64,000 nt of DNA, taken from contig JANRIL010000006.1 in the NCBI GenBank assembly GCA_033764955.1, positions 1 to 64,000 of the forward strand, in the 5' to 3' direction. Positions 10,056 to 24,304 of this stretch are shown one piece after another (within the stretch, counting starts at the first letter, position 1; each line of letters opens with the position of its first letter). The stretch comes from Cyanobacteriota bacterium. Its GTDB lineage: Bacteria > Cyanobacteriota > Cyanobacteriia > Thermostichales > Thermostichaceae. Under the pieces are notes generated by a model, which did no database searches, was not told where the DNA came from, and was given only the letters and a program-made list of their open reading frames with translations. The translations under genes were made by a program, and so were the position numbers.

Positions 10056-13000
10056 TTATCCGGCTTTGGCGGCAAGCGTATGCAGATCTTTGAGAACTTC
10101 GCTGATCACCACCGCATCCACCTGACCCAATGGGATCTTTTCCAGGTATTGCGGGTAGGCTTTGGGCAGTTGAATGCCAGGAACAAAAAAGCAGCGATCA
10201 ATCGATTGGGGATCCCAGTCCATCATGTAGCCCACCGGGATCCCGTCATACTCCATAACGGCGGTGACATTGGCGCTATGAAAGGGTTTGGAATGGCTGT
10301 GAAAGCATCCGCCATCTTCGGGAATGCCGCGCATCCAGTTGAGTCGCTCCAGAATGCCCACGAGGGTGATGGCGGGAATTTTGTAGGAAGCAAAGTCGGT
10401 GATCTCGGTTTTGTTGACCAGGGCGGGATCCAGTTGATAGGTTTCTCGTCCCAGTTGAGGGAAGGGGGGCATGATTTCGTAGTCACTGAACAGTTCTCCC
10501 CAAAGGGCGGCTTGCTCAGGGGGCAGGTGGGCGGCGTGGAGGATGCCGATCTGGGTCACGGATTCTGGTAGATCGAGCGGGTCGTCTTGGGCATTGCCAT
10601 AGGTTTGGTCTTCGGTGACGCGAAAGGTGGTGACCAACTGACCTACCGCATCGTAGGCTCCCCACACCAAGAGCCGCACTAGGTTGATCATAAGGGGATG
10701 ATGCACCATCAAGCTCTCAAAATCGGCGACCGTCCAACGGCGACCCGTGATCATGGCTTGTTCAAGGCGGATGGCCTGGACTTTAGCCACTTCGTTGACC
10801 TGCTTTTTCAGCAGCTTCCAGTCGGCAATCGCTTGGTTGGCTTTGATCGGATCATCTTTGCTGTTGGGTTTGGGCAGGTCGGGTTTCAGCTTGCCCTCGC
10901 TATCTCGCAGCAGGGGCTTCATGTCAGACCCCAGCACCAGACGAAACTGGCGCGGTCCGAAATCGAGCAGACGGGATCCCCGTTCATCCAGGTCACAATC
11001 GGGCACGATCCGATCCTCTAGCTGTTCACGGCTGAGTCCACGGGCTTGGGCAATCTCCTCCATACAGGTTTGGGCTTTGGCCTGAATACCTTTGAATTTG
11101 ACTTTTTGGGCGATACCGTTGATTTGCATGAGAGCCGTATCGCTACCGATGGTACGCAGACACTCCAAACCCAGCACCGCCCGTTGATGCTGGCTTTCTC
11201 CCGGCCAAACCCGAATCAGCGGAGCCAGTTTGAGGGCGGAGGCATCGGATCCCAGCAACCCGACCGCGACTAAGCTCCATTTGTCGGCAGAAGGAGCAGT
11301 ACGGTTTAACCAGCGATCAAAGATTTTCCAGGCAAACTGATCCAGACTGACGGCATCCGCCTGTTTTTTGAGGGTTGGGATCAAAGGATGAGGGGCGGTG
11401 AGGGTACTTTGTTGCAGGGCTATCACCAGCTTTTGTATCTGGTCAGGATTCAGGCAGAATTGCCCGACAAAAATGGGCGGACAATCAGTCAACAAAAACC
11501 AATTGGGCAGGCCATTTTTGGCTTTGGCTTTCACCTGAGCAAAGGCTTCTTTCAGATCTGCGGGGGTGGTTTGCTCATCCAACGGTGGGATGCCGGCAGT
11601 GGGGGACTCCAGCAACAGAGCGGTGAGTTTGGCGGCTGCCTCTGGGGGTTGGGTTTGCAGGATGGCGGCTATCGAGGATCCCCAGCCCTGCCAAACCAGA
11701 TCGCGCAACCACTGCACAGCGGCATCGGCGGAGCGCCCTTTGCCACTGGCTAGCGGCAACAATCCCACTATCGTTAGTTGGGGATGTTTTTTTAGCCATT
11801 CGATGGCCGGAATCGCTAATTTTGACTGGAGCATTAACTCCAACATATAAGGGGCGATTTCGGGCGCTTCAACCAGACTCAAAACCTTGAGCAATTCGGC
11901 TCCGTGATCTCTGCTGGCCTGGGATCCCGCTAACACATTTTCATAAACAATATCTAACCCTTGATATTGGCTGTAATAAAGCCAGCCCCGTAAATAGTCC
12001 ACAGAAGTAAGAGGTAATTTTAGGCGACGGATATGGTGTTGTACGGCATCGGGATCCCCTAAGCGCAAGACAATATCCTGCGGCAGGTGACAACTCCATT
12101 TATAGGGATCCGCCCGATAGAGATCATCAGGCCAACTATTCACCAAGGTTTGCATCTCTCCGGTCATACCCAAATAAGCCGCGAGGTGAAAGGCTGCATC
12201 GGGAGAAGATTCATAGGGATTGACCGCTTGCTGATAATCAAAAGGCCATAAGCTGGGATGTAAGTGGGGGCGTAAAATATTGCTTAGAGATGCGACCTGC
12301 TCAGAGGATAGACGAGGAACCACATGGGTATGAAAACCCGCCAACAGTCCCATCACCATTTGAGTCCAGTAGTGCTTGTAGTAGGGATTGGGTGAGGTTT
12401 GAGCTACCTGCTGAAAGGCTGCTTCATCTCGCATTAAAGTAATCAATTCCTCCGGTGAAAAAATGACCGAAAGAGGAATCATCATTATGGCGTGATCGGA
12501 GGCATGACGACAAAATAATTGTCGTATCGTATCTAAGGTAATCGGTTGAGACTCCATTTCTTCTAAATAGGCCGTCAATGATTTAGCATTGCTTGTCTTA
12601 TTTCCCTGATATAGATTCAACCGATCTTGATGCAAGGATTCACGTGCATGGATCCAAAAGCGAGCTTCCTCTTGAGTGAGGGGCAACCGAAGTTTTTCCA
12701 TGCCAGGAATAGCTCGATGATAGTAGTGGTAGTAACCATCTTTGATGACGGTTTCAATAAAGGTTTTGGTGGCTGCCTTTCGATCAAAAGGAGGTGGATC
12801 CCCCAATGGAATATAAGGGCGATTTTTGGGATCCCAATAGCTATCTTTGACCTCCAGTTGAATAGAGCGAGTAACCATCAACTCTCTAGGAACGGCTGTG
12901 GTTAAAACTGGTTCTTTCCCTTTTTCTGGAGGATTGCTAACGATTGCTGGCGGGATCCCATCCTCTAGGTTGGCGGAGTCTACAGCTAGCCCTAAACTCT

Positions 13001-16704: not shown

Positions 16705-16963
16705 CCTCTGATTGGAGATCATGGCAGACCCAGTGGAAGGATCCGCAGCAGATCAAGGCTTGAATTGGCTATGGGTACTCATCTGTTGATGAATCCCAGT
16801 CCACTCTGTTCTTTAAAGAAGGCGTAGATTGAGCATGATTGAGGGTTCTGGACTGTTTTGAGTTACGAATTCTCCTCTACAAGTGATGCGAACTAAAGCA
16901 CCAGATATGGATTTCTGGCAAAACTGGCGCTAATCTTTCAGGTAGAGATGTGAGGATAAGCGT

Positions 16964-18565
16964 TTGAGTTTTCCCAGGTTTTTAGCCAGCTCAGGCTTGG
17001 CTGGTTTTCTCTTATTAGCTTCGGGTTGCTCAGGCACCGACAGCAGTTCTGTTGCCATCAATCCCCAATCCCCTACCGGCGGGCAAACCTTTACCGCGAC
17101 TGGAGTTGCTCAAGGGGGTGTTGTCACCTTCTCCTCAACCATTCGCACTCCCTATAGCGGCCAACTTCGTTTGGATATTCAGAATCTCGGAGATCTACCC
17201 GATGCCCTGCAGGTGAAGGGGGCAACATTTGCCCCCATGGCGGTCAGTCTCTATCCCGAATTTACTTCCTTTACAGCCAGTCTAAATTCTGCTCTCCTCA
17301 CCCTCGATGCCTTTAATCAACTGGATCTCCCCTTGCCCGATGGAACCCAAGTGCAAGTGGTTGATGCCGTCAGCAGTCCCCAGCTTGATACCGTAGGGTT
17401 CCTACTCCGTCAGCGAGGGGTTTCTCTTGTGTTTCAAGGGGATCCCAACACCGTCACGTTGGAAGATGTCGCTTTAGTTCTGGCCTATCTGCAACTGCCC
17501 TCCCAGTTCCGCACCGCTAGCAACCTGGCAGCTCAAGCCAATCAATTGCTTGGCAATGGACAAATTGATCCCAATCAACTCAATCCTCTGCCGGGGCCTA
17601 ATTTCATTGACTGCATTGCTCCCAGTGGACTGGTTGATTTACGAGATGTAGCAGGATTTCTAGCGATGGTGGGAGTTCCCACCGGATCCCTGACCGCTAA
17701 CCAGTTAGCTGCCGAGATCAACAATTTATTACCCGGCGCTGGGCTAATTGGTGCCGATATTATTGGTTTTCCGGGAGAGGAGTGTAATCCAGGAGCCACC
17801 GGCCCAGCCGGAGAACCAGGAGCTACGGGTCCAGATGGAGAACCAGGACAGCCAGGAGCTACTGGACCGAGTGGGCCTATTGGACCGAGTGGGCCTGTTG
17901 GACCGAGTGGGCCTGTTGGACCGAGTGGGCCTATTGGACCGAGTGGGCCTGTTGGACCAAGTGGGCCTGTTGGACCGAGTGGGCCTGTTGGACCAAGTGG
18001 GCCTGTTGGACCAAGTGGGCCTGTTGGACCGAGTGGGCCTGTTGGACCAAGTGGGCCTGTTGGACCAAGTGGGCCTGTTGGACCAAGTGGGCCTGTTGGA
18101 CCAAGTGGGCCTGTTGGACCGAGTGGGCCTGTTGGACCGAGTGGGCCTGTTGGACCGAGTGGGCCTGTTGGACCGAGTGGGCCTGTTGGACCTACTGGAC
18201 CCACTGGATCCACTCAACTAATTGCTACTGGTTTCTGTATTAGTCAACCCGGCACTAATACCCTGACTCTCGTTGGCCCTACCGGAGTTACAGGCGAATG
18301 TACTAATAATGGAGCTTTAGATGAAGGAGGTGTTACATCATCTGTCACCTTTAACAATCTACCCGTTCCAGATGGCACTCCGTTTAACGTACAAATCACG
18401 GTGGAGTCTTCAGACAGCGTTATTGTTGTGATCACCAATGGCAGCACTCAACTTGCTTCAGGAGGCAGTGTAACTTACGAGATCAACATCTTTGGGACTT
18501 TTAGTGAAGGTCAATCTTTTAATGGCTATAACATTGCCATTATTGAAGTGCCTCCAGTTCCGTAA
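16964..18565 (+). CDS. Collagen-like lipoprotein
   Basis: Lipobox LASGC (Cys22); duplicated ~48-aa module; 47 consecutive Gly-X-Y triplets; beta-rich C-terminal domain. Confidence 0.85.
17864..18187 (+). repeat. 18 tandem copies of the 18-bp unit GGACCRAGTGGGCCTRTT (GPSGPV/I)
   Basis: Direct reading: 324 bp = 18 x 18 bp. Confidence 0.95.
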
Positions 18566-18622
18566 TGATCCTGCGGGGATCATACGGAATCAATAACAAC
18601 GTTATCCAGCAAGAATTGAATC

Positions 18623-21223
18623 ATGAGTTCACTCTGCTTGGCGATGATTGTCAAGAACGAGGCTCACGTTCTGGGGCGATGCCTAGCCTCGGTCAAGCCG
18701 TTGATCTCGGCATGGTTGATTGTGGATACGGGATCCTCTGATGGCACGCAGAGCTTGGTTGCCGAAACCCTGAGTGGGATCCCTGGGCGATTGGAGGAGC
18801 GTCCCTGGCGAAACTTTGGGGTAAATCGGACAGAAGCCCTGCAACTAGCCCGTTCCTGGGCAGATTACAGCCTGGTGATGGATGCCGATGACTGGCTAGA
18901 GTTGACTCCAGAGTTTGTCTTACCTCCCTTACAAGCGGATGCCTACTTTCTGTCCATTCGGGATGAGCATACTCGCTATCAACGGCTGCAAATTTTCAAC
19001 AATCGTCTGCCTTGGCGCTACGAGGGAGTGCTTCATGAATATCCGGTTTGTGAAGAGGCTCAAACCAGGCAACTCCTAACGGGTATCACCTATTGTCGGG
19101 GCTACGATGGAGCCAGTTGGAAGGATCCGGAAAAATATCGCCGTGATGCTGCTTTGCTCGAATCCGCTCTCCAGACGGATCCCTACAATGCTCGCTATGT
19201 ATTTTATTTGGCGCAAAGTTATCGGGATGCTCAGTTATGGGATGAGGCGCTCACCTATTACCAGCGACGGGTGTTGATGGGGGGCTGGGCTGAGGAGGTT
19301 TATCAAGCTCTGCTTCAGATCCCCCAACTGCTAGAAAGAAAAGCGGTGGATGCTGGTTTGGTTTGGGCAGCCTACCTGCGAGCCTATCACTATCTTCCCC
19401 AGCGAGCAGAAGCTCTCTGCTATCTGGCTCGTTATTGCCGTCAGCAGGGGGAACATACCCTGGCTCATCTTTTTGCGGCACAGGCGATGAGGATTCCCCT
19501 CCCCCCCAATGGCTTATTTATCGATGAAGCCGTTTATACCTGGCAGGCCTTGGATGAATACGCAATTGCCGCCTATTGGGTTGGCAACTATCTGGAGGCC
19601 ATTTCAGCCAACCAACGCCTGCTAACGGAGGGATCCCTCCCCGCGTCGGAGCAGGCACGGGTGCAGAGCAACCTTGTTTTTTGCCTGAATGCCATCGGTC
19701 AACCCCATCAGATTGAGAGCCAACGGGTTCAACCTCAACCCCCTCCGGTTTTTCCTGTAAAGGCTTTCTCTCCCCAACCGCTTTCTGCTTTGCCGAACTC
19801 TCCTCCTCGCCCCAACAGGCGGGTGGCGGTGATTACCCCTTACTTTGATGAACCTTTGCAGATATTGCGGCAATGCCATGAGAGTGTAGTCCGCCAGTCC
19901 GTCCCTTGCGAACACATTATGGTGGCGGACGGGATCCCTCGGTCTGAGATTGATGGATGGGCAGTGCAGCACATTAAGCTGCCGAAAAACCACAACAACA
20001 AGGGCGACACCCCCCGTGCCATCGGTGGGGCATTGGCCGTAGCCCAGGGATTCGATGCAATCACCTTTCTGGATGCGGATAACTGGTATCAACCGGATCA
20101 TCTGGCCAGCCTGCTCGCCCTACATGAAACAACCGGAGCAGAAATTTGCACTACGGCACGGACATTACATCGGCTGGATGGATCCCTACTGCCCTTTCGA
20201 GAAGTGGAAGAAGGCGGTAGCCATGTTGATTCTAACTGTTTGATGATTTTCCCCCCCGCCTTTCGCTTGTTTAGTCTTTGGGGGCATATTCCCCAGCCCC
20301 TCTCGCCGATTGACGACCGCATTATTTGGCAAGGCATCCAGAAACTAGGCTTTCGCTGCGCTTTTACGGGACAAGCAACCGTGGCCTACCGCAGCCGCTA
20401 TGCTTCCCATTACCGAGCCGTAGGGGAGCCTCCCCCTGCCAATGCCTTCGATGTCGATTGGCAAGGCCATATCCAGTGGTGGCAGGCACTCTCGGAGCCG
20501 GATCGGCGGATGTATTGCCAGCGCTTGGGATTTGATTTGGTGCTTACAGGTGAGCCGACCGAGAGTCCTCCCTTCCCTCTCTCTCCCCTAGCTAGAGCAA
20601 ACCACAGCCCTCCGGAGGATCCCGTCACCCTCCTCTCTCCTTTTTTACAGATGGAGGACTGGTTACCCGAAAGGGAAGTGAAGGAATTGCTGGATTTTGT
20701 CAGCGCTGCTCAAGCCGAGTTTGTCCCCGCCGGAGTGACATCAGGGGATCCCGGTTATCGACAGGCGCTCATTTTGCACTCCTTTCCTCCTTTCGCCGAT
20801 CACATACGGCAGCGAGTGCGGGCGATCCTACCGGAGGTTTGCGCCAAGTTAGGGATCCCTCCGTTTGCAGTCAGTGAAATGGAAGCCCAGCTCACGGTGC
20901 ATGGGAACGGGGACTTTTTTAAGATCCATCCTGATAATGGAGCCGTGGGGATCCGCAATCGAGTGCTTTCCTACGTCTACTACTTCCATCACCTGCCCAA
21001 ACGCTTCACGGGGGGAGAGTTACGGCTTTATGACAGCCAGCAGGAGAAGGGAGAGATCAAAGCTGCCTCCACCTTTCATCTGATTCAGCCACGCTACAAC
21101 AGCATCGTTTTTTTCCCCAGCTATTGCTGGCATGAAGTCTTGCCCATTCAGTGTGGATCCCCAGCTTTTCGGGAGGGGCGATTGACGATCAACGGTTGGC
21201 TGCGTCACCCCGGACAGCCCTGA
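18623..21223 (+). CDS. Multidomain GT2 - TPR - GT2 - 2OG-Fe(II) oxygenase (prolyl-hydroxylase-like) fusion
   Basis: MIVKNE/IVDTGSSDGT/MDAD (GT2); FYLAQSY..AL.YY TPRs; VITPY/VADG/FLDAD (GT2); HPD..GGEL..WHEV..RLTINGW (2OG-FeII_Oxy_3-like). Confidence 0.88.
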   Translation: MSSLCLAMIVKNEAHVLGRCLASVKPLISAWLIVDTGSSDGTQSLVAETLSGIPGRLEERPWRNFGVNRTEALQLARSWADYSLVMDADDWLELTPEFVLPPLQADAYFLSIRDEHTRYQRLQIFNNRLPWRYEGVLHEYPVCEEAQTRQLLTGITYCRGYDGASWKDPEKYRRDAALLESALQTDPYNARYVFYLAQSYRDAQLWDEALTYYQRRVLMGGWAEEVYQALLQIPQLLERKAVDAGLVWAAYLRAYHYLPQRAEALCYLARYCRQQGEHTLAHLFAAQAMRIPLPPNGLFIDEAVYTWQALDEYAIAAYWVGNYLEAISANQRLLTEGSLPASEQARVQSNLVFCLNAIGQPHQIESQRVQPQPPPVFPVKAFSPQPLSALPNSPPRPNRRVAVITPYFDEPLQILRQCHESVVRQSVPCEHIMVADGIPRSEIDGWAVQHIKLPKNHNNKGDTPRAIGGALAVAQGFDAITFLDADNWYQPDHLASLLALHETTGAEICTTARTLHRLDGSLLPFREVEEGGSHVDSNCLMIFPPAFRLFSLWGHIPQPLSPIDDRIIWQGIQKLGFRCAFTGQATVAYRSRYASHYRAVGEPPPANAFDVDWQGHIQWWQALSEPDRRMYCQRLGFDLVLTGEPTESPPFPLSPLARANHSPPEDPVTLLSPFLQMEDWLPEREVKELLDFVSAAQAEFVPAGVTSGDPGYRQALILHSFPPFADHIRQRVRAILPEVCAKLGIPPFAVSEMEAQLTVHGNGDFFKIHPDNGAVGIRNRVLSYVYYFHHLPKRFTGGELRLYDSQQEKGEIKAASTFHLIQPRYNSIVFFPSYCWHEVLPIQCGSPAFREGRLTINGWLRHPGQP

Positions 21224-21338
21224 TCCGGCCTGAGAGAAAAAGCTGAAGGCTAAGCCATCTCAGGGATCCTTAATCTCATAGCTCTACAGTTGTGGGGGAG
21301 TGCCCCTTGTTCAGAATCCCAATCGGTTGGATGCAGCC

Positions 21339-22175
21339 ATGACTATACCCTGGCATGACGTCGAGAAAATAGACCCCCTTGCCCTCAGCGAGGCTCGTCT
21401 GCAACTGCACTATGCCATTCAATTTTTGGCGGCTCCGGCGGCGGCTCTGGCCGTACCTCTAGCCGATTTAGGTCACACTAGCTTGAGTTGGGAGACCATT
21501 CAGGGATCCCCAGTCTTTGTCAGTCAACCCATGCCAGCGGAAATGCCCCTGCGGGTGGCCTTGCATCCGTTGACCCTGACAGTGCTGCTGCTCTCGAACA
21601 CTGGGGATCCCTTCGCTAGTTATCCCTTGGCGGGACAGACGATGACGGCGGGGCTGGAGTGGCTGAAGACCCACTTGGCGGAACGGGGGGCTGAGGCTGA
21701 AAAAGTGGCGTGGTTGAGCTATCCTGCCGATTTCCCCCCCCATGCTTTAGGGGAGGGCAGCCCTTTTGCGGATCCTGAGGGTCTGCCTTTGGCAGCATTG
21801 GTGGCCTACTATGCCAAGACAGCCCCCCTGTTGCAAACCATTGCTCTTCCTCGGCGCGGAGCTTCTCCTCTCCGCATTTGGCCCCATCATTTTGATATGG
21901 CGGTCTTAATCCAACCCCAACCGCAACAGTTCATTGGGGTAGGACTTTCTCCCGGAGACCACTATTATGCTCAACCCTACTGGTATGTGAGTGCTTACCC
22001 TTATCCTCAGCCTGAGCCATTTCCCCCCTTACCCGAACCAGCCTTTTGGCACACCCAAGACTGGCTGGGAGCCGTCCTCACCGGATCAGCCTTGAAAGGC
22101 AGGGATCCCCAGATCGAATTACCCACTTTTTTAGAGACGGCCATCTCGATGAGTGAGGGATGGTTCCAACCCTAG
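21339..22175 (+). CDS. Hypothetical protein, DUF5996-like
   Basis: RLQLHYAIQ, SPLRIWPHHFDMA, GLSPGD..Y.QPYWYVSAYPYP. Confidence 0.6.
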   Translation: MTIPWHDVEKIDPLALSEARLQLHYAIQFLAAPAAALAVPLADLGHTSLSWETIQGSPVFVSQPMPAEMPLRVALHPLTLTVLLLSNTGDPFASYPLAGQTMTAGLEWLKTHLAERGAEAEKVAWLSYPADFPPHALGEGSPFADPEGLPLAALVAYYAKTAPLLQTIALPRRGASPLRIWPHHFDMAVLIQPQPQQFIGVGLSPGDHYYAQPYWYVSAYPYPQPEPFPPLPEPAFWHTQDWLGAVLTGSALKGRDPQIELPTFLETAISMSEGWFQP

Positions 22176-23869: not shown

Positions 23870-24304
23870 CTACTCGCTCCGCATCCTCAGGGATCCATGG
23901 GATCCCCTCTGCTCCTGCAACCTCCGACGGGATCCGTATTCCACAACGCTGCCTTGCTGCAAAATCAGAATCTGGTCTACTCGCTCTACGGTTTGCAGGC
24001 GGTGGGCAATGATAGTCGGAGTAAGTCCTAGCAACAGACGATCAAGAGCTTGTTCGATCCGTTTTTCCGTATGGGGATCCAAGGGAGATAAAGCCAACAA
24101 CTGAGCTTGTCCCGCCAACAACCCACCACTCTCGGCGGCTAAGGGAGTTTCTAGCCCTAACGGTTGGGTGACTAGCCAATCCATCAGCCCTAAGATCTCC
24201 AGAGTAGCCAGGATCTGCTGGTCAGGGATGTGGGGGTTGAAACAGGTCAGGTTCTGGCGGATGGTGGCTTGAAACAGTTGCACTTCCTGTGTCACCAACC
24301 CCAT
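23870..24304 (-). pseudogene. Fragment of an ABC exporter ATPase domain
   Basis: Q-loop VTQEVQLF, signature-like LLAGQAQLL, IIAHRL; Walker A, Walker B and TM domain missing. Confidence 0.8.

Follow-up and report, generated by a model that had tools for sequence, protein, structure and literature searches.

The window analysed here, a 64,000-nucleotide stretch of contig JANRIL010000006.1 from a cyanobacterium of the Thermostichaceae, carries two neighbouring open reading frames (ORFs) on the + strand that together form a candidate collagen-modifying unit. The first, with a TTG start, encodes a 533-aa collagen-like protein. The second, with an ATG start, encodes an 866-aa fusion enzyme in which a family 2 glycosyltransferase (GT2) with tetratricopeptide repeats (TPR), a second GT2 domain and a 2-oxoglutarate (2OG)/Fe(II) oxygenase follow one another (Table 1). 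An earlier note on this DNA had placed the enzyme gene 57 bp downstream of the collagen gene on the same strand, which was confirmed. On the + strand, the gap between them is free of terminator-like and promoter-like sites, and promoter-like sites across the region are no more numerous than expected by chance. Co-transcription of the two genes is likely, as judged from the sequence.

Residues 277–417 of the collagen-like protein form its longest repeat run, and a pattern search returned exactly the 47 uninterrupted Gly-X-Y triplets that had been reported there. The triplets are GPS (18), GPV (16), GAT (3), GEP, GPI and GPT (2 each) and GPA, GPD, GQP and GST (1 each). Proline fills the X position in 40 of the 47 triplets, and the Y position is held by Ser (18), Val (16), Thr (6), Pro (3), Ile (2), Ala (1) and Asp (1), with Ser or Thr at Y in 24 triplets. 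The 141-residue repeat contains no Lys, and the entire protein has one. At the DNA level most of the run is an 18-bp tandem array whose 18.3 copies far exceed chance expectation, and ORFs at 17575-18213, 17744-18217 and 17748-18221, on the opposite strand or in other frames, are by-products of this repeat. The Pfam Collagen model (PF01391) scored 70.7 bits against a cut-off of 27.2. The NCBIfam equivalogs for the adhesins SclA, SclB and Lcl scored 89.7, 71.6 and 49 against cut-offs of 325, 500 and 400, with matches to the repeat alone, and by these scores the protein is not a member of any of the three.

The N-terminus has a hydrophobic stretch followed by Cys22, and comparison with the lipobox pattern by eye makes the protein a probable lipoprotein. 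The N-terminal 268 aa (16964-17767) belong to a family that is single-copy in the window's own genome (G000), while matching places number 47 in G002, 25 in G009, 24 in G025 and 22 in G027. Elsewhere in related cyanobacteria this family forms the N-terminus of ORFs of about 200 to 1650 aa. The C-terminal 116 aa are possibly a trimerisation or head domain. Taken together, the protein appears to belong to a family of surface proteins, and its variable part would in this case be a collagen stalk with a unique head.

Table 1. Features of the collagen-like gene and the fusion enzyme gene, in window coordinates.
Feature	Position	Strand	Basis
Ribosome-binding-site-like GAGGA	16952..16956	+	Read from sequence; 7 nt 5' of the TTG start
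Collagen-like probable lipoprotein gene, 533 aa	16964..18565	+	ORF; PF01391, E 8.5e-20
Signal peptide ending LASG-Cys22 (lipobox-like)	16964..17029	+	By inspection
N-terminal non-collagen domain	17030..17767	+	Multi-copy family in related cyanobacteria
Collagen region, 47 Gly-X-Y triplets	17792..18214	+	Pattern search
18-bp tandem array (GPSGPV unit)	17863..18192	+	18.3 copies, 97% match
C-terminal 116-aa domain	18215..18562	+	Found in G000 alone among 41 genomes
57-bp intergenic gap	18566..18622	+	Between collagen gene and fusion gene
866-aa fusion enzyme gene	18623..21223	+	ORF, Pfam, motifs
GT2a catalytic domain, GT-A fold, DAD 87-89	18623..19117	+	Pfam, PDB sequence matches, alignment, model
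TPR-like helical repeat domain, residues ~166-360	19118..19702	+	Pfam; model all-helical 164-359; Foldseek
Pro-rich linker 1	19703..19816	+	Sequence
GT2b, second GT2 domain, DAD 484-486	19817..20497	+	Pfam, motif
Pro/Ser-rich linker 2, disordered in model	20540..20626	+	Sequence, AlphaFold
PHD-type 2OG/Fe(II) prolyl-hydroxylase-like domain (H769, D771, H837, R853)	20627..21220	+	Pfam, alignment, profile, Foldseek

In the fusion enzyme, Pfam Glyco_tranf_2_4 matched residues 11–93 with 24.6 bits, slightly below its cut-off of 27.5, and TPR_12 matched residues 256–291 weakly, below its cut-off as well. Glycos_transf_2 had its best stretch at residues 403–519 (E 2.4e-20) and 2OG-FeII_Oxy_3 covered residues 756–861 (E 5e-17). 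The DAD motifs begin at residues 87 and 484, HPD at 769, WHEV at 836 and RLTINGW at 853; the domain search and the motif placement thereby recovered the whole order of domains and all of the motifs (DxD twice, HPD, WHEV, RLTINGW) that had been read from the letters before.

Residues 4–216, searched with phmmer against the PDB, matched ThuS (7msk, 5e-6), GmaR (22ao, 5.3e-6) and SunS (1.7e-5) best. D87 and D89 are invariant in 13 aligned sequences, the module and 12 relatives. An AlphaFold model of residues 1–370 built from this 13-sequence alignment (mean predicted local distance difference test score, pLDDT, 91.7) consists of a GT-A domain followed by all-helical repeats at about 164–359. When the model was compared with the PDB using Foldseek, the top six matches were ThuS and SunS chains spanning both the glycosyltransferase and the TPR parts (6e-15 to 1.8e-13, 14–16% identity in the structural alignment), and TPR proteins and other GT-A enzymes ranked after them. 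By sequence and predicted fold, the GT2-TPR module is a peptide/protein-type glycosyltransferase of the SunS/ThuS/GmaR type. SunS and ThuS glycosylate Cys of small peptides and GmaR glycosylates flagellin; unlike the module of the window, none of them is linked to collagen.

The second GT2 domain, GT2b (residues ~399–625), has the Glycos_transf_2 match and a DAD motif, and a search of the PDB with it gave nothing beyond a weak PglI-like match and a spurious one to a designed repeat protein. It was left as a generic GT2, on its sequence. Single proteins with the order GT2-TPR-GT2 occur elsewhere: P0152 (639 aa) aligns with residues 8–619 in one stretch, and P0154, P0156, P0159 and P0072 have a similar form by phmmer and Pfam. 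P0183, of similar length, was tried as a second fused form and rejected, being four copies of GT2b. Further relatives combine the first module with GT4, with FkbM or other methyltransferases, with sulfotransferases or with additional glycosyltransferase families, and this variety of partners suggests that the first module starts a glycan which the fused domains extend or decorate.

Genomes, one per species, were scanned for the GT2-TPR module with a profile built from the module and its 12 relatives, which gave at least 595 confirmed relatives, a family of very wide distribution. The best-scoring 80 of these, a non-random set of relatives that are not mutually independent, were analysed together with flanking DNA of at most 8 kb to either side. 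Gly-X-Y runs were sought by a six-frame, stop-free pattern search without gene calling, and for this reason loci were counted rather than ORFs. A run of at least 8 triplets was present in 42 of the 80 loci, and one of at least 10 triplets lay within 8 kb in 41. Where at least 5 kb of flank was available on both sides, 25 of 44 loci had a collagen-like run. The nearest run was upstream on the same strand, as in the window, in 28 of the 41 positive loci, and it lay within 1.5 kb of the glycosyltransferase in 25 and within 3 kb in 31. A GT2b relative was present in one of the 80 loci.

The same scan of 79 loci of the oxygenase family (640 kb), used as a control, found a collagen-like run in one. 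Among 18 control loci taken from the window's relatives there was again a single run, in a locus that is itself a GT2-TPR locus. As for background, five genomes holding such a pair have 1–5 collagen-like loci each per 3.6–6.1 Mb, and two of the five have no collagen-like locus apart from that next to the glycosyltransferase. G000 has a single PF01391 locus and a single GT2-TPR gene, the two neighbours described here. The positive loci come from Polyangiaceae, Alpha-, Beta- and Gammaproteobacteria, Chlamydiae, Terriglobus, Flagellimonas, Pirellulaceae and Planctomycetota, Longimicrobiaceae, and Actinomadura, Marmoricola, Sporichthyaceae and Mycolicibacter. The linked runs have Thr at Y in 70.7% of triplets, and Ala (45%) or Pro (20.5%) at X. 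This is far richer in Thr than the 31.6% given for the Y position across all bacterial collagens in a review (PMC8968730). According to the same review, hydroxyproline and sugar are both absent from most bacterial collagens.

The closest known system is SgtA/BclA3 of Clostridioides difficile. According to the published account (PMC7157674), sgtA lies immediately upstream of bclA3, and SgtA (358 aa), with TPR after its GT-A domain, adds beta-O-GlcNAc to Thr of collagen-repeat peptides, Ser versions being modified as well. Compared by description, the first module of the window has the same size (~360 aa) and the same GT-A-TPR architecture, and in both cases the glycosyltransferase gene adjoins a collagen-like gene. 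Ten relatives of the module with 358–362 aa, close to SgtA in length, carry no protein name. The systems differ in several respects. SgtA is a single module from a Gram-positive spore former, whereas the module of the window is fused to a second GT2 and a prolyl hydroxylase, and the gene order is reversed, with the enzyme of the window downstream of its collagen. BclA3 has Gly-Pro-Thr repeats and sits in the exosporium, whereas the candidate substrate here is a cyanobacterial lipoprotein with Ser and Val at Y. The literature searched, which took in few subscription journals, yielded SgtA/BclA3 and BclA glycosylation and no pairing of GT2-TPR and collagen-like genes across phyla.

With 41 of 80 linked loci against 1 of 79 in the control, a SunS/ThuS fold and the architecture of SgtA, a writer-substrate pair of glycosyltransferase and collagen of the SgtA/BclA3 kind is well supported by sequence, model and analogy, in agreement with what the earlier note had proposed for glycosylation (SgtA precedent, PMC7157674). 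The glycosyltransferase part probably modifies the neighbouring collagen. That note had also suggested surveying homologues for linkage to collagen genes. For the whole protein such a survey was inapplicable, since no full-length homologue was found, and the parts were judged separately: the linkage stood for the glycosyltransferase part and failed for the oxygenase part.

Few cyanobacteria have the module: a search at E <= 1e-40 detected it in 6 of the 401 genomes available for the class, from 3 of 169 genera, the window's genome included. G011 and G013 have it as a free-standing 362-aa protein, 56% identical to that of the window. In G037 (L029 7167-10308), the protein encoded 146 bp upstream of the GT2-TPR gene has 268 aa, RTX calcium-binding repeats and a short tail of collagen-like triplets such as GPT and GPQ; the GT2-TPR protein itself is fused to a beta-mannosyltransferase-like (PF12141) domain. 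G068 and G089, of the same genus as G037, have the enzyme without the RTX/collagen-tail neighbour.

Turning to the oxygenase, residues 621–866 were aligned with 19 relatives, and H769, D771, H837 and R853 are invariant across the 20 sequences. The profile of this alignment matched Dictyostelium PhyA (DdPhyA; 6t8m, 5e-14), PPHD (4iw3, 9.3e-6) and human PHD2 (~1e-4) in the PDB. An AlphaFold model of the domain (pLDDT 84.3) has its first 35 residues, the linker, disordered, and all 50 chains listed by Foldseek for it are PHD-type prolyl hydroxylases, PPHD being the best (7.7e-12), with DdPhyA at 1.5e-10. By sequence and model, the domain is a PHD-type prolyl 4-hydroxylase, nearest to PPHD, PhyA and PHD2. 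PPHD of Pseudomonas is likewise a bacterial enzyme of this type, and it hydroxylates EF-Tu. Both PPHD and the prolyl 4-hydroxylase (P4H) of Bacillus anthracis differ from the domain of the window in being free-standing, neither fused to nor encoded beside a glycosyltransferase, and we know of no natural collagen substrate established for either. DdPhyA is the cytoplasmic prolyl 4-hydroxylase of Skp1, whose product is then glycosylated (PMC7864055). The Skp1 pathway of Dictyostelium and Toxoplasma (PhyA, Gnt1, PgtA) thus contains the nearest solved structure to the oxygenase profile, and it differs from the case of the window in using separate proteins, a single proline of Skp1 and a first transferase of another family; no Skp1 is involved here.

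The earlier note had likened the architecture to that of animal LH3. In LH3/PLOD3 and mimivirus L230, one polypeptide combines a glycosyltransferase and a 2OG/Fe(II) hydroxylase that modify collagen, L230 joining a GLT25D1-like transferase to a PLOD-like lysyl hydroxylase (PMC9614988). These are PLOD-type lysyl hydroxylases with the sugar placed on hydroxylysine, whereas the oxygenase of the window is PHD-type and the repeat beside it has no Lys; the glycosyltransferases, too, are of the SunS/ThuS/GmaR type and not of the GLT25D/LH3 type. No PLOD or L230 entry occurs among the 39 matches of the profile to the PDB or the 50 listed Foldseek matches. An LH3/L230-like reading was rejected on the lack of PLOD-type matches and of Lys in the repeat, and the resemblance, as far as sequence and models tell, is one of logic and not of descent.

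The surroundings of the oxygenase family are varied. The gene often follows purH (AICARFT/IMPCHase) directly, as in L116, L123, L124, L127, L128, L137, L139 and others, frequently flanked at its other end by an ankyrin-repeat gene (493 aa) and in several cases present as 2–3 tandem paralogues; elsewhere it stands near Nif11 or PqqD genes. In the metagenome contig L167 (5913-8585), a secreted (Gly-Leu-Pro)n protein that scores 35 bits with the Collagen model, a Glyco_tranf_2_4 transferase and an oxygenase of the window's family follow one another on one strand, with a methyltransferase nearby and a second oxygenase 1.6 kb further on (10179-11105). This is a suggestive separate-gene parallel to the unit of the window. 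L148 (2618-7022) has a PqqD gene, a 520-aa fusion of MauE and oxygenase, and a PF11397 'GlcNAc' transferase fused to NTP_transf_5. PF11397 is the family of the Skp1 hydroxyproline GlcNAc transferase, and L148 looks like a peptide-modification cluster pairing the oxygenase family with a Skp1-Gnt1-like transferase. The oxygenase relatives P0144-P0151, of 520–540 aa, have a P-loop-like GRS.TGKS motif in their N-terminal part, where Pfam gave no match. A second, more distant copy in G000 (C11:135938-136363, 40% identical over 141 residues) ends a 489-aa ORF (L030 7025-8494) whose N-terminal part has no Pfam match.

Our reading of the locus is a two-gene unit in which a collagen lipoprotein at the cell surface is modified before export, by glycosylation and by proline hydroxylation, through a cytoplasmic enzyme; as a whole it is tentative, and we would place it a little short of an even chance. 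No signal peptide or membrane segment was seen in the sequence of the enzyme, whose most hydrophobic 19-residue stretch falls inside the GT-A core, and it would for this reason act in the cytoplasm, on the unfolded collagen precursor and ahead of export and lipidation. Cytoplasmic glycosylation before Sec-dependent export is known for HMW1 and for adhesins of the AIDA type. The TPR surface would hold the unfolded Gly-Pro-Ser/Val chain, and GT2a would put a first sugar on Ser or Thr at the Y positions that carry them, as SgtA does on BclA3, with both sugar and acceptors presumed. GT2b would add a further sugar to the first. The fused oxygenase would hydroxylate prolines of the same chain; that it acts on the neighbouring collagen is possible, and we hold it with more doubt than the role of the glycosyltransferases.

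A number of observations weigh against this reading. On the side of the glycosyltransferase, 19 of the 44 full-flank GT2-TPR loci have no collagen-like run, and the collagen of the window has Ser and Val at Y where linked collagens elsewhere have Thr. Of the six cyanobacterial genomes with the module, the window's and G037 alone have a collagen-like neighbour; G011, G013, G068 and G089 have none, with no nearby run of at least 6 triplets apart from a Gly-rich six-triplet stretch (L013). On the side of the oxygenase, the fusion to a glycosyltransferase is a singleton, no second case having been found in the databases searched. None was present among the 120 listed of 894 matches to the fusion protein, none of 33 matches to residues 390–866 spans GT2b and the oxygenase, and among 5 matches to residues 655–866 a glycosyltransferase domain occurs in the window's own protein alone. 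Of the 150 matches listed out of 17708 in a phmmer search of 1.84 billion representatives, none reaches the oxygenase part. In 40 relatives searched the oxygenase part is free-standing or in other fusions, for example with pentapeptide repeats. Free-standing relatives of ~300–350 aa, 44–48% identical, are present in G002, G006, G007 and G009, genomes that gave no Collagen-family and no GT2-TPR match. No oxygenase relative occurs in the 80 GT2-TPR loci, nor a relative of GT2a or GT2b in the 79 metagenome oxygenase loci. The oxygenase family as a whole would, on these counts, have some other substrate. Collagen prolyl 4-hydroxylases prefer the X-Pro-Gly arrangement, which is found here in just 3 triplets, proline being mostly at X. 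The B. anthracis P4H does, however, hydroxylate prolines at both X and Y of (Pro-Pro-Gly)n peptides (PMC8968730). With the fusion found nowhere else, and free-standing relatives very rarely beside collagen or glycosyltransferase genes, hydroxylation of the collagen is plausible but unproven.

Among the alternatives, the one that survives best is that the glycosyltransferases modify the collagen while the fused oxygenase keeps whatever job its free-standing cyanobacterial relatives have. This could be the hydroxylation of another protein, as PPHD does with EF-Tu, or a way of making the enzyme responsive to O2 or 2-oxoglutarate. Many cyanobacteria that lack collagen and GT2-TPR genes have such relatives, which lie in the varied neighbourhoods described above (after purH, in tandem copies, by Nif11 or PqqD genes), and G000 has no copy other than the fused one and the distant paralogue on C11, so that the fused one may be resident there. 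On the other hand, a domain fused to a substrate-recruiting module usually shares its substrate or pathway, and L167 does line up an oxygenase of the family with genes for a collagen-like protein and a glycosyltransferase. In a quick, unresolved tree the fused domain is unplaced and its branch is long (length 1.14, median 0.14), as would suit a change of role; as the domain is unplaced, no origin is claimed for it. We consider this alternative unlikely.

A further alternative would couple the two activities, the oxygenase making hydroxyproline (Hyp) in Gly-Pro-X and one or both GT2 domains attaching sugar to that Hyp. Glycosylation of Hyp does occur on Dictyostelium Skp1 and on plant Hyp-rich glycoproteins. 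DdPhyA, whose Skp1 product is subsequently glycosylated (PMC7864055), is the nearest solved relative by profile, proline abounds at X, and L148 pairs an oxygenase of the family with a PF11397 transferase. Pointing instead to a Ser/Thr acceptor, GT2-TPR relatives stand beside Thr-rich collagens with no oxygenase in any of the 80 loci, SgtA uses Thr and Ser (PMC7157674), and the 866-aa protein has no Gnt1-type PF11397 match in Pfam. Modification of this kind is improbable here.

Still somewhat less probable is that the adjacency is incidental and the enzyme builds another glycoconjugate, a polysaccharide or the glycan of another protein, leaving the collagen unmodified. Most relatives are named 'glycosyltransferase involved in cell wall biosynthesis', and the full-flank loci without a run and the four of five other cyanobacterial genomes without a collagen neighbour would agree with it; the enrichment over the control loci, the fold of peptide glycosyltransferases, and the position of the sole collagen gene and the sole GT2-TPR gene of G000 57 bp apart on one strand speak against it. 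Finally, an assembly or sequencing artefact joining 2–3 separate genes, conceivable for a singleton with Pro-rich, low-complexity junctions in a genome of 48 contigs and 89% completeness for which no sequencing run was listed, is very improbable given a frame that is open and uninterrupted over 2598 bases, even G+C along the gene, and the recurrence of the GT2-TPR-GT2 part as one protein in the five relatives named above.

On the 3' side of the fusion gene, the gene at 21300-22175 is DUF5996-like (ESM Atlas features 0.96; structural template modelling score 0.83–0.90). It has no Pfam match and no relative in the 80 GT2-TPR and 79 oxygenase loci, and was not counted as part of the two-gene unit. 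The ORF at 23870-24304 on the - strand (144 aa) resembles the C-terminal piece of an ABC-transporter ATPase minus its N-terminal part and may be a gene remnant.

What is of an already known kind at this locus is the pair of glycosyltransferase and collagen; what was found nowhere else is the fusion with a prolyl hydroxylase. It is improbable, on present sequence evidence, that one bacterial polypeptide hydroxylates collagen prolines and builds a glycan there with the sugar on the new Hyp of Gly-Pro-X. Were this true, it would be a bacterial counterpart of Skp1 and plant Hyp-O-glycosylation on a collagen, convergent with LH3 and L230, and the first case in nature of enzyme-made hydroxyproline in a bacterial collagen. 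If the oxygenase acts on the collagen at all, the enzyme would offer, in a single gene, a compact cytoplasmic means of producing hydroxylated and glycosylated collagen in bacteria, of interest to makers of recombinant collagen; it would also be a clear case of convergence with the collagen-modifying enzymes of animals and giant viruses. If it does not, the locus would be an unremarkable example of the SgtA/BclA3 kind, in a phylum that is new for it and where the module is rare. For the family at large, a Thr-rich collagen-like gene stands beside the module in half of the 80 best loci and in many phyla, and O-glycosylated bacterial collagens may for that reason be common.

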